Positions 55,025 through 59,138 of a stretch of 64,000 nt of DNA are shown here, piece by piece (positions within the stretch are counted from its first letter, which is position 1; every line of letters starts with the position of its first letter). The DNA is from Candidatus Heimdallarchaeota archaeon. GTDB taxonomy: Archaea; Asgardarchaeota; Heimdallarchaeia; Hodarchaeales; Hodarchaeaceae. The notes below the pieces were generated by a model. It had not been told where the DNA came from, searched no databases, and worked only from the letters and a program-made list of their open reading frames with translations. A program made the position numbers and the translations under genes. The stretch spans positions 4,657,414-4,721,413 of the forward strand of contig CP070695.1 in assembly GCA_020353515.1 (NCBI GenBank), given 5' to 3'.

Positions 55025-57847
55025 TTAAGTAGGAACACTTTTTTGAATCTTGGGGGTGAAAAACCTTAACAAAAGACTATTAGTAACGACAGAAATAGAA
55101 CTCAGTGCCATAGCGGCTCCAGCAATTTCGGGAACCAGAGTGATTCCGAAAGGAATGAATAAGATGCCAGCAGCGATTGGAATTCCCACCAAATTATATA
55201 TGAAGGCCCAAAAGAGGTTCTGCTTAATTTTAGAAATGGTTTTTTTGCTTAGCTGAATACTGGCGACTACATCGCGGAGATCCTCTTTTATAAGAACAAT
55301 ATCCCCTGTTTCAATGGCCACATCTGTACCACTGCCTATAGCTATACCAATATTTGCTTGTGCTAGTGCCGGGGCATCATTTATCCCATCACCAACCATA
55401 CCAACAAATTTTCCCTTGACTTGTATTTCTTCCACAATTTTTGCTTTATTTTCTGGTAAAACTTCAGCAACGACGTTTTTGATACCTACTTGAGAAGCAA
55501 TTGCCTTCGCTGTACGTTCATTATCCCCTGTTACAAGGTATACCTCTATCCCCATCTTCTGTAATTGTACAACCACTTCTTTGCTGGTTTTTTTCAGTGG
55601 ATCAGCAATCGCAAGTAATCCGAGGAATTTGTTGTTCATTGTGGAAATGACGACAGTTTTAGCTTGGCTTTCTAATTTCTGTATATTTACTTCAAAATCA
55701 TCTAAAGATATTCCTATATTTTCAAATAATCTACGATTTCCAACAGTAATTATATCCCCATTTATTCGAGCTCGAATACCATGACCAGGAATTGCCTCAA
55801 AATCTTTGGGCTCATAGAGATCGATTCCTCTTTCTTCAGCTGTTTCAATGACAGCTTGAGCAAGAGGATGTTCAGATCCTTTTTCTGCAGAGGCTACCAA
55901 TGCCAGAATTTCATCTTCTACTTTGTCCTCCATGAGAACTATTGTATCTGTAACCTTTGGATTACCTTTCGTCAATGTACCTGTTTTATCGAATACAATT
56001 GCATCTATTTTGTGAGTACCTTCCAAAGCTTCTGCATTTTTAATAAGAATTCCTTGTTCAGCACCCTTTCCTGTGCCAACCATAATAGCAGTAGGTGTAG
56101 CTAGTCCTAGAGCACAGGGACAAGCAATTACAAGTACTGCTATCATTAGTTTAAATGGGAACACGAAACTGTTAATTTGTTGACCCCATAAAGTGGTTGG
56201 TAAAAAACCAATTAAGCCTCCGGTATACCAGAAAAAGAAGGTTAACAATGATATTACAATCACTGTTGGAACGAAACGTCCTGCTACAATATCAGCGAGT
56301 CGTTGAATCGGAGCTTTAGAAGCTTGGGCATCTTCAACAAGTTTTATGATTTGAGCTAATGCAGTGTCCGCTCCAACACGAGTAGCTTTAATGGTAAGTA
56401 ATCCATTTTTGTTGAGAGTTGCACCGATAACTTGGCTATCGATGGTTTTTTTTACAGGCATCGATTCACCAGTAATCATTGATTCATCGACAGTAGAACT
56501 TCCTTCAATAACAATTCCATCGGCAGGAATTTTCGCTCCTGGTCGAACTAATAGCAAGTCCCCAACCATTACTTCCTCGATTGGAATCTTTTCCTCTTTC
56601 CCATCACGAATTAATGTAGCTTCTTTAGCTTGTAAATCTATTAGCTTTCGAATAGCTTGAGATGTCTGTCCTTTCGCTCTTGCCTCCAAATATTTTCCTA
56701 AGAGAAGAAAAGTAATTAATAATGCAGCAGTCTCGAAAAATATTGCTTCTGGATCTTGAATTAGGATTCCAAGTATTGAATACCAAAATGCAGCATTAGT
56801 TCCTAAAAATACAAGGACATCCATGTTAAATTGTCCATGACGAAGCACTTTCACGGCACCATAATGAAATTGCCATCCTGCAACGAACATCACAGGAACG
56901 GTGAGTATCATAATTATCAAGATATGATTTGCTACTCCTGGGACCATATTTTCTGGAAAAGGTAATGGAATCGATAACCCTATCATAGGTCCCATACTAA
57001 GTATTAAAATGGGCACACTAAGGATGAGTGCCCCCAACAGTCGTAATTTTTGGAGTCGGAGCTCTCTAGCTCTTTCAAGACTTTCTTTATCTTCAGAAGT
57101 CATTCTATAAGAAGATATTTTCTTTGCTTCATACCCTACATTTTTAATAGCATCAATAATTTGATTTTCTGTAATATATCCTGGATTAAAGACTACACGA
57201 GCTTTTTCTGTTGCAAGATTGACACTTTGTTCAATAATTCCATCCTGTTTAGTCAATGCTGTTTCTATTGTATTAACGCAACTTGCACAAGTCATTCCTG
57301 AAATTGCTAGATTTACAGTATGCGAAGATCGAGATGCATCTTTAGCTCCATATCCCACGTTTTCCACTGCTGTAACTAAAGAGTCAATATTAGTTTTTCT
57401 TGGATTGTATTGAACCTGTGCTTTTTCGGTCATTAGGTTGACAGAAACGCTTTCAACCCCTTCCACCTTGTTTAGCTCATTTTCAATTGTTGAAACACAA
57501 GAAGCACATGTCATCCCTGTGATCCTTAAATTTGCTAGTTGAAGCTCAAGAGCTGGTATTTGTGTTTTAGGAATTTTTTCTATTGTATGATTGACGGCAT
57601 CTGGTGATGAGGAGGCTCGAATATCATCTACTTGCTTTATTTCCAAGGGTTCATCATCTTTTATAATTTGCATAGGTTTATTATGATGAATGGGAATATC
57701 CTGGACTCCACATTCGGGCCCCATCCAACAGACCAACCTCGTTTCATCATCAACATTTTCAATATGCATCGGTTGTTTACAATGCATTGGAACAGGTTCT
57801 GCGTAATCGCATATCTGACACTGTAACTGCTGGGGCATAAAGATCAC
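55025..57847 (-). CDS. copA: Cu(I)-exporting P1B-type ATPase with two HMA domains and an extra N-terminal Cys/His domain
   Basis: GMTCASC x2, TGES, CPC, DKTGT, SEHP, GDGIND, YN, MALSS. The likely start is ATG 57838. Confidence 0.95.
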   Translation of the reverse strand: MIFMPQQLQCQICDYAEPVPMHCKQPMHIENVDDETRLVCWMGPECGVQDIPIHHNKPMQIIKDDEPLEIKQVDDIRASSSPDAVNHTIEKIPKTQIPALELQLANLRITGMTCASCVSTIENELNKVEGVESVSVNLMTEKAQVQYNPRKTNIDSLVTAVENVGYGAKDASRSSHTVNLAISGMTCASCVNTIETALTKQDGIIEQSVNLATEKARVVFNPGYITENQIIDAIKNVGYEAKKISSYRMTSEDKESLERARELRLQKLRLLGALILSVPILILSMGPMIGLSIPLPFPENMVPGVANHILIIMILTVPVMFVAGWQFHYGAVKVLRHGQFNMDVLVFLGTNAAFWYSILGILIQDPEAIFFETAALLITFLLLGKYLEARAKGQTSQAIRKLIDLQAKEATLIRDGKEEKIPIEEVMVGDLLLVRPGAKIPADGIVIEGSSTVDESMITGESMPVKKTIDSQVIGATLNKNGLLTIKATRVGADTALAQIIKLVEDAQASKAPIQRLADIVAGRFVPTVIVISLLTFFFWYTGGLIGFLPTTLWGQQINSFVFPFKLMIAVLVIACPCALGLATPTAIMVGTGKGAEQGILIKNAEALEGTHKIDAIVFDKTGTLTKGNPKVTDTIVLMEDKVEDEILALVASAEKGSEHPLAQAVIETAEERGIDLYEPKDFEAIPGHGIRARINGDIITVGNRRLFENIGISLDDFEVNIQKLESQAKTVVISTMNNKFLGLLAIADPLKKTSKEVVVQLQKMGIEVYLVTGDNERTAKAIASQVGIKNVVAEVLPENKAKIVEEIQVKGKFVGMVGDGINDAPALAQANIGIAIGSGTDVAIETGDIVLIKEDLRDVVASIQLSKKTISKIKQNLFWAFIYNLVGIPIAAGILFIPFGITLVPEIAGAAMALSSISVVTNSLLLRFFTPKIQKSVPT

Positions 57848-57858
57848 CTTCTCCTATG

Positions 57859-58056
57859 TTAACCTGATGGCTCAATTTGCATTGGTTTGTCGTGATGAGA
57901 GGGTAAATCTTGGACTCCACATGAAGCCCCCATCCAACAGACTAATTTCTCATTTCCATCAATCTTTTCAATATGCATTGGTTGATTGCAATGAACTGGA
58001 ACAGGTTCTGTATAATCACATATTTGACATCTTAATTGCTGGGTCATTAATATCAT
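57859..58056 (-). CDS. Small Cys/His/Met metal-binding protein, putative copper chaperone
   Basis: CQIC...HCNQPMH...CWMGASC...HHDKPM; 42 of 58 residues identical to the CopA N-terminus by hand alignment. Confidence 0.8.
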   Translation of the reverse strand: MILMTQQLRCQICDYTEPVPVHCNQPMHIEKIDGNEKLVCWMGASCGVQDLPSHHDKPMQIEPSG

Positions 58057-58426
58057 CTCACTTAAATTGATTATTTGTTATTTTACATATATTAAATTCT
58101 TCATTTTTTGAATTCAAACACTTCAATTGGTTATTAATGCTTTCTTAAGATCAAACAGGCAATATTTTCTAAATGACCTAGAGTTTCTTTAGCTTAAGGA
58201 ATTATGTACTTAAAAATTAAACCTTTGATAACTCTCTGAGAAGGGAATTATATTGAGATTAGAGTGAGGGTCTGCTTTATTTCACATTAATCTGTTAGAT
58301 GTAAAAGCCTTATGTTGTTTTTTTCGTAGTATAGTTTTAATATCCATCAATCAATATAAAATATATATATTTGGAATAAATTTCACTTTTCATAACATGG
58401 AACCTAAATAAGACAAGATTTTAACG

Positions 58427-58535: not shown

Positions 58536-59138
58536 ATGGTGAAAATTGAATTGGATAATGCCGATCTAACTATTCTAAACCGTTTAAATGAGAATGGTCG
58601 AATTACTTATTCCGAGTTAGCGAATGAGCTTAATCTTACAGTTCCTACTGTGAAATCTCGCATTGATAAGTTAACAAAAATTGGAGTTATCCATCACATT
58701 GGTGTCTATTTAAATCCACATTCATTGACAAACGAGAGTGCTGCGTTAATAAAGGTTAAAGTTGATAAAGAAGAAAAGAAAGAGTTCATTAAGTTCTTAA
58801 CTTCAGTAAATGAAGTAAGAGAGGTATTTGAAGTCTTAGATGAGTTTAATCTTATGATGATAACCCAAAATCAACCACTTAATATGCACCACATTTTGTA
58901 TGAAGAAATCAAAGCTCATTCTTACGTCAAAAACGCAGAAATCAATATACTTGTGAAGGAAGTTTTCGCGAATCCTCATCGTATTCCTAAACAGAGTCAG
59001 CTCCTAAACGTTCGGTGCGAATATTGTGGTAAACAGATAAGTGAGAGTTATGAAACCGAAAAATTTGAAGAAATTCGACACTATTTTTGTTGTACAAGCT
59101 GCTTAAGGAATTACAAGAAGTGGAGAGAGTCTCAATAA
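58536..59138 (+). CDS. copR: Lrp/AsnC-family copper regulator with TRASH domain (CopR-like)
   Basis: LDNADLTIL..L.ENGR.TYSELA HTH and C-terminal CEYCGK...YFCCTSC; divergent from copA. Confidence 0.85.
   Translation: MVKIELDNADLTILNRLNENGRITYSELANELNLTVPTVKSRIDKLTKIGVIHHIGVYLNPHSLTNESAALIKVKVDKEEKKEFIKFLTSVNEVREVFEVLDEFNLMMITQNQPLNMHHILYEEIKAHSYVKNAEINILVKEVFANPHRIPKQSQLLNVRCEYCGKQISESYETEKFEEIRHYFCCTSCLRNYKKWRESQ

Follow-up and report, generated by a model that had tools for sequence, protein, structure and literature searches.

A two-site cysteine/histidine domain, free and fused to the copper pump CopA in an Asgard archaeon: a candidate chaperone/pump-domain pair

The way in which P1B-type ATPases obtain and sense copper remains a matter of debate, and only a handful of metal-binding domain types have been investigated in this connection. 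In the CopZ/HMA pairs of the Cu(I)-transporting P1B-1 ATPases, a small soluble protein is accompanied by a homologous domain at the cytosolic end of the pump, the corresponding genes are adjacent and placed under a copper regulator, and free and fused states interconvert between species. A non-HMA solution is found in Streptococcus, where the membrane-anchored chaperone CupA has a cupredoxin fold that is duplicated on the N-terminus of CopA. In archaea, the cop cluster consists of CopR (a helix-turn-helix, or HTH, domain with TRASH), CopA, and an optional small chaperone of the TRASH type (CopM or CopT, as in Saccharolobus) or of the HMA type (CopZ, as in Ferroplasma and Pyrococcus) (PMC7830388). 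The Cu(I) pump CopA of Legionella pneumophila (LpCopA) carries an N-terminal domain (Protein Data Bank (PDB) entry 8OVL) with the look of a zinc fold, which binds silver or copper by way of three sulfurs and serves as a copper sensor, releasing an autoinhibitory tail (PMC11970713). The subject of this report is a cluster that follows the same logic as its archaeal counterparts, located in a 64,000-nucleotide stretch of the genome of a Candidatus Heimdallarchaeota archaeon (contig CP070695.1, positions 4,657,414 to 4,721,413; hereafter, the window), in which a CopR-like regulator, a gene for a small Cys/His protein and copA lie together. It differs from the described clusters in that the small protein matches neither TRASH nor HMA, and in that TRASH is found solely on the regulator in this genome; the small protein is matched instead by a homologous first domain of the pump. 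We put at about 0.5 the probability that the two copies form a Cu(I) metal-binding domain/chaperone pair that fills the chaperone slot of an archaeal copR-copA cluster. The pairing of a chaperone with a metal-binding domain is itself known; what is new is that it is built here on a domain lacking a curated family or a clear structural match. The loci that were fetched from other genomes show that the arrangement recurs.

The free-standing gene (57859-58056, minus strand, taken from a list of open reading frames (ORFs) and its translation) encodes 65 residues from its first ATG and harbors one copy of the two-site Cys/His domain. A second ATG, at 58047, would yield a protein of 62 residues and has the stronger Shine-Dalgarno (SD) match; because the GAGGTGAT-like SD sequence upstream of it is conserved across related genomes in an alignment of the intergenic region, the protein is probably 62 rather than 65 residues in length. 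A paralogous copy forms residues 1-61 of CopA (57664-57847, minus strand), where it was recognized by BLASTP and by a family profile that hits both copies in their own genome. The two share 43 of 61 residues in an ungapped BLASTP alignment (E 1e-35), and the count of 42 of 58 given in an initial annotation, made from the sequence alone, was thus essentially right. Every Cys and His of the pattern described there is indeed common to both copies, and the similarity that had been noted at the level of the DNA amounts to 76% nucleotide identity (71% at the amino-acid level) over residues 5-62.

Orthologues of the free copy occupy the same position in at least seven other Asgard genomes. In a tree of 42 domain sequences, which rests on a 58-column alignment and fixes no deep branching order, the cop-linked free copies of the window and of loci L001-L004, L007 and L008 form one group (SH-aLRT 84), the fused copies fall into separate, well-supported groups apart from them, and locus L006 is the only one at which free and fused copies cluster together. 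Since the cop-linked free copies group together and apart from the fused ones, the duplication is, on sequence grounds, old, and both copies are evidently maintained under purifying selection, with ratios of non-synonymous to synonymous substitution (dN/dS) against orthologues of 0.08-0.19 (free copy) and 0.12-0.16 (fused copy). A recent duplication or gene conversion within the window genome was considered and ruled out, as each copy groups with its own orthologues and the synonymous divergence (dS) between them is approximately 0.9. In related species the first copy is joined to CopA in a tandem fusion, and therefore fission and fusion of the domain evidently occur among relatives, as they do for CopZ and HMA domains.

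The pump itself (55025-57847, minus strand) is classified as a P1B-1 type Cu(I)-exporting ATPase, of 940 residues when read from a GTG, by TIGR01511 (copper-translocating ATPase, 634 bits against a cut-off of 397), by TIGR01525 (667 bits), and by the P1B-1 signatures of its translation, all of which are present: CPC in transmembrane segment (TM) 4, N-x6-YN-x4-P in TM5, P-x6-M-x2-SS-x5-N in TM6, and DKTGT. Its start is probably not that GTG (57847), but an ATG at 57838, which is preceded by GGTGATC (an SD match) and lies downstream of the TAA stop of the small ORF. The two minus-strand ORFs are spaced by 11-20 nucleotides, and the small gene and copA each have an SD sequence of their own. Read-through of the small ORF into CopA is ruled out by their differing reading frames; with stop and start out of frame, these are two genes, and no single product is formed from both. 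Within CopA, the Cys/His domain is followed by a linker of approximately 45 residues, by two HMA domains (57350-57529 and 57128-57310, both minus strand and PF00403 in Pfam, each with GMTCASC), and by the ATPase core, so that this pump bears the new domain alongside two genuine HMA domains, as the initial annotation had read it. Also as proposed there, a divergent CopR-like regulator precedes the unit (58536-59138, plus strand), with an Lrp/AsnC winged HTH and a C-terminal TRASH domain (Pfam HTH_24, HTH_AsnC-type, Arc_trans_TRASH and TRASH_HVO_1752_C); its placement beside the small gene/copA pair is conserved in 10 related loci.

In sequence, the new domain and HMA are unrelated families: PF00403 has no match on the small protein or on CopA residues 1-100, as against 110 bits for residues 107-240. 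The new domain is predicted to consist of all-beta knuckles, in contrast to the beta-alpha-beta-beta-alpha-beta order of HMA, and to possess two four-ligand Cys/His sites in place of a single MxCxxC. Pfam found no match to TRASH or YHS on the domain (PF08394, PF04945, PF24273; motif C-x19-22-C-x3-C), and in fusion proteins the TRASH/YHS matches lie in separate segments upstream of it; nor was sequence or fold similarity to CupA and the cupredoxins detected. Across Pfam and NCBIfam, no match at E<=1 was obtained for the small protein or CopA residues 1-100, except for a PriA zinc ribbon knuckle at 15 bits, and neither phmmer nor a 54-sequence profile matched a PDB chain better than E 0.07. An AlphaFold2 model of the small protein, computed with 54 homologues, is helix-free and all-beta, with six short strands and a predicted local distance difference test (pLDDT) score of 90. 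Four fold searches returned no significant match for the domain; Foldseek against the PDB gave none at E<0.5, its top rows being desulfoferrodoxin-type superoxide reductases at E 0.56. The initial statement that the domain matches no known motif or family was upheld by these searches.

The best experimental analogue of the new domain would appear to be the N-terminal domain of LpCopA, likewise a small, all-beta rubredoxin-knuckle domain with an inventory of Cys, His and Met on a Cu(I) pump. It differs in having one site within approximately 37 residues, and a free-standing paralogue is not mentioned in the accessible part of its description; 8OVL showed no similarity in the sequence and profile searches of the PDB and was not among the hits of the fold searches.

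The domain lacks a curated family and a clear structural match, and the family to which it belongs is real. Relatives are annotated as 'hypothetical protein' in source databases, and a full-text motif search of the literature found no paper on the family motifs or on desulforedoxin combined with a P-type ATPase. In the ESM Atlas, the nearest named clusters are Desulfoferrod_N at 0.81, which is a lead only. A word-indexed search returned five free proteins of close similarity and thirteen that are longer; almost all of the latter are Asgard copper ATPases, some with two N-terminal copies and one with a C-terminal copy. An exhaustive hidden Markov model search of 1.84 billion cluster representatives yielded 118 clusters at E<=1e-3, including 52 at E<=1e-10.

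Ligand statistics were taken from 105 realigned full-length domain instances, in which C10, C13, H22, C23, M27, C40, G43 and C46 are invariant or nearly so, and in which the pair of the first site is HC in 101. At the second site, position 54 is H in 90 instances and C in 12, and position 55 is H in 52 and C in 49, such that the last ligand pair reads HH (51), HC (37) or CC (11); because ligand residues swap for each other there, these two positions act like metal-coordinating sites. The best explanation of sequence and model is that the two window copies belong to an unannotated family of all-beta, predicted metal-binding domains of approximately 55 residues, with predicted four-ligand sites composed of Cys-Cys-His-Cys in half 1 and Cys-Cys-His-His/Cys in half 2. 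When the halves were compared by hhalign they aligned at 86.5%, with a score of 37.5 against a mean of 3.3 and a maximum of 9.8 for shuffled columns, and members of one side branch comprise two plain CxxC...H[H/C]xxPM units. Given this homology between the halves and the make-up of the side branch, the domain is, at the profile level, a tandem duplicate of a knuckle unit of approximately 27 residues (C-x2/5-C ... P-x-H-[C/H]-x2-P-M), which bears out the two pseudo-repeats of the initial annotation.

Those repeats had further been described as desulforedoxin-like. Half 1 aligned to Asgard desulforedoxin domains at 64% (score 30.7; shuffled mean 2.4, maximum 6.7), with CxxC placed on CxxC, HCGQPM placed on CCGQPM, and a 7-residue deletion in the hairpin; half 2 gave no alignment (2%). 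Membership in the desulforedoxin family, PF06397, is ruled out: the Pfam model stays below its cut-off and the Cys4 set CxxC...CC is not kept. In a six-frame scan of the whole genome, this model detected neither cop-locus copy, its best match anywhere being 15 bits against a 23-bit cut-off, and hmmscan likewise reported no PF06397 match at E<=1 on either the small protein or CopA. The same model finds genuine members in 111 of 201 Asgard genomes, with the consensus CxxC-x15-CCGQPM. It is reasonable to call half 1 desulforedoxin-like at a remote profile level only, the likeness lying in the CxxC knuckle and in the adjacent ligand pair and G-x-P-M that follow it. Desulforedoxin works as a dimer of two knuckle units, and the new domain holds two units in a single chain.

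The alignment of half 1 lends some support to an iron-binding redox protein of the desulforedoxin/rubredoxin kind, which could, for instance, supply the pump with Cu(I) by reducing Cu(II); so do the subfamily with CC at the last ligand pair, the FTR1 iron permease that adjoins the free gene at three loci, and the precedent of Archaeoglobus CopZ, whose [2Fe-2S] N-terminal domain is reported to reduce Cu(II) (cited in PMC7830388). Such a protein is nevertheless very improbable here, as His replaces the first Cys of the CC pair at the first site in the 101 instances noted above, the second site carries HH or HC in the majority of members, the hairpin has 7 residues fewer, and PF06397 is blind to the domain.

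The association of the domain with copper pumps was assessed in a scan of one genome per species, which used two peptide patterns derived from Asgard members (a 7-sequence alignment) and returned 59 loci, so that the proportions given here are biased Asgard-ward; loci were assigned to classes from their open frames and from tblastn searches using the CopA core. At 44 of the 59, the domain is fused to a P1B ATPase or encoded directly beside its gene. Sixteen of these have it at the N-terminus, either with a free gene in addition, as in the window (7 loci), as two tandem copies (5 loci: L009, L011-L013 and L019), or as a single copy (4 loci); at 22 the fusion is to the C-terminus of the ATPase, and at 6 a free gene lies directly downstream of it. 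Three further loci have a free gene directly upstream of an FTR1 permease gene, with a P1B ATPase 1.2-5.7 kb away, and 12 have an ATPase-free neighbourhood. C-terminal fusions occur in Promethearchaeota, Binatota-like bacteria and other bacteria. The partner pumps carry N-terminal HMA domains, often with YHS preceding the new domain; non-pump fusion partners are YHS alone and a Longin-like plus TRASH protein, and additional neighbours of domain genes include ArsR and a PadR-TRASH regulator. Because these independent fusion architectures are broad, a real functional tie to metal pumps appears to exist despite the biased sample. The linkage of the family to copper pumps is, judged by gene context, strong but not exclusive, and the best explanation is that the family serves mainly as a metal-binding module on the cytosolic side of Cu(I)-exporting P1B-1 ATPases. 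Binatota-type pumps had seemed to use the new domain as their sole metal-binding domain when tblastn found no HMA in them, a notion that was dropped when Pfam showed one N-terminal HMA.

The gene content of the window genome (one contig of 4.94 Mb, 96% complete) and of its genus bears on the same point. In the window genome no free HMA protein was found, HMA being present only inside CopA and one ATPase of 711 residues; the CopR regulator holds the sole TRASH domain, and no YHS domain was found. The new domain is present in 22 of the 22 genomes of the genus, usually with three matches each, and 18 of these 22 have no HMA in a short open frame. The best explanation of this context is that the small gene occupies the chaperone slot of the copR-copA cluster, which would account for the supply of the copper pump in an Asgard genus that is mostly without CopZ and free TRASH proteins.

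This locus thus shows the arrangement that marks a metallochaperone/pump domain pair, with two homologous copies, one free and one fused to the pump, in genetic linkage with a P1B ATPase. As we envision the process, rising copper would cause CopR to activate the small gene-copA unit, and the copper-responsive CopR promoter would drive joint production of the free protein and CopA. The small protein would capture cytosolic Cu(I) at one or both of its Cys/His sites, and would then either swap the metal with its homologue at the start of CopA or hand it to the pump. The fused copy may act as an acceptor, or as a sensor that relieves autoinhibition, roles that are modelled on those of HMA, cupredoxin (CupA) and the Legionella rubredoxin-knuckle domain. 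Within this scheme, we infer the metal (Cu(I)), its transfer and the direction of transfer. A prediction of the complex between the free protein and the CopA N-terminal domain, with both supplied as alignments, scored 0.01 and is evidence neither way.

A number of observations weigh against a copper chaperone/pump-domain pair, beginning with the Asgard-ward bias of the patterns used for the locus scan. The linkage to P1B ATPases on which the initial annotation had staked its proposal held for the 44 loci described above and broke down at the 12 without a nearby ATPase, and five bacterial genomes have one lone free copy and no fused one, such that a matching docking domain cannot be a general requirement. 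Among the unlinked genes, those of Binataceae-like genomes lie after clpP or near gltX, and those of other bacteria after a hydrolase gene. The window genome also contains a third, diverged free copy (L062:1513-1701, plus strand; chromosome 4876125-4876304) of 62 residues with 'CC' as its last pair, which adjoins a membrane protein and a flavoprotein-like ORF; its context, with neighbours read without a family-library scan, includes no recognisable metal-homeostasis genes. Given the unlinked copies and the additional copies within this one genome, the family may best be viewed as a small metal-binding module of general use, most commonly employed in its pump-linked form. The methionine that had been proposed as a substitution suited to Cu(I) proved to be a poor argument for copper, because genuine Asgard desulforedoxins have CCGQPM and the Pro-Met after the ligand pair is therefore inherited rather than Cu(I)-specific. 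Finally, Cys3His and Cys2His2 sites are the classical pattern of structural Zn(II), and the domain might be a structural two-zinc ribbon for protein-protein contacts or folding, secondarily linked to the pump and handling no transported metal. We hold this to be quite unlikely, as fusion or adjacency to P1B ATPases at 44 of 59 loci, together with fusions elsewhere to TRASH and YHS, is hard to reconcile with a generic structural ribbon.

Two further points of this kind concern the role of the free protein. Since the first copy is part of a tandem fusion at loci L009, L011-L013 and L019, the free gene may encode a regulatory domain that has become detached, and not a carrier, and the work on LpCopA argues that N-terminal domains of this kind sense metal and do not deliver it (PMC11970713). 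The alternative suggested by these points is a sensor or regulatory module, in which the fused domain controls autoinhibition of the pump and the free protein buffers metal or tunes the pump in trans, without delivery. It draws on the LpCopA domain, which has a similar Cys/His/Met inventory and was shown to be a copper sensor and not a donor; on the interconversion of free and tandem-fused states among related species; and on the presence of the domain at pump C-termini and on regulatory-looking Longin-like plus TRASH proteins. We consider it rather unlikely, because the free copy is kept as a separate gene with its own SD sequence in at least seven genomes and under purifying selection, and because HMA, TRASH and YHS scans of the window genome revealed no other candidate chaperone.

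A broader and more tentative proposal may also be made. The domain could represent a fourth structural class of copper metallochaperone and pump domain, after HMA, TRASH/YHS and cupredoxin-like domains: two desulforedoxin-like knuckles joined as a pseudo-dimer within one chain, their Fe(Cys)4 sites converted into Cys/His sites for carrying Cu(I). Such a domain would have taken the place of CopZ in Hodarchaeales-like Asgard archaea, and pump C-termini in Promethearchaeota and Binatota would have acquired it independently. Should the link to desulforedoxin hold, a fold that houses an iron site would have been reused for copper trafficking. The family is, in addition, a convenient one, being 55 residues long, confidently predicted and apparently soluble, and its free, N-fused, tandem and C-fused forms allow the roles of chaperone and sensor to be compared.

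Turning to the remaining features of the locus, the 479-bp spacer between copR and the small gene contains a 29-bp block (58193-58221, minus strand) made up of a TTAAG...CTTAA inverted repeat and a T/A-rich stretch, which emerged when five intergenic regions were aligned. L001, L002 and L004 contain the block unchanged and L007 has it with one change, while the flanks have diverged; the block matches once in the window (0 expected) and is unique in the 4.9-Mb genome. On sequence grounds, it is a candidate promoter or CopR operator of the small gene-copA unit. A metatranscriptome contig of 265 nt from marine sediment covers copA at 57365-57629 (the HMA1 region) with a single difference; it stops short of the small ORF, DNA carry-over is possible, and it allows no conclusion on expression.

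Several observations extend the distribution of the family. Copies equivalent to the third one of the window genome are present in most genomes of the genus, and the window genome also has a 113-residue ORF (L063:1246-1587, plus strand) with two half-units (CxxC...CGEPM twice), flanked by two large membrane proteins that are transporter-like by appearance. In Binataceae-like genomes, loci L044:709-1534 and L045:7223-8183 each have a lone free copy after a ClpP-like gene (identified by eye) and no pump-fused copy. The FTR1-linked free copies are located at L017:8001-9356, L029:8001-9355 and L034:8001-9352, in three Asgard genomes, and at L029 and L034 an HMA-bearing P1B ATPase of approximately 700 residues lies next to them; the adjacency of free copies to FTR1-family permease genes suggests that the module may also serve metals or systems other than CopA. 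In Promethearchaeum, a PadR-family regulator with a C-terminal TRASH domain is divergent from a free copy (L058:709-1621).

Outside of the pumps, metagenome proteins of 220-260 residues (P0034, P0039, P0044, P0059, P0068 and P0137) combine an N-terminal Longin-like or roadblock-like region with TRASH and a C-terminal copy of the new domain, an architecture that, by its composition, may be one of metal-sensing regulation. In P0013 (134 residues, on a very short contig of 725 nt), a sigma-70 region-4-like segment (precomputed PF04545/PF08281) comes after the domain, representing either a rare fusion or an assembly chimera. In P0083 (189 residues), it stands behind a Cys-containing N-terminal region of approximately 125 residues without a Pfam match.

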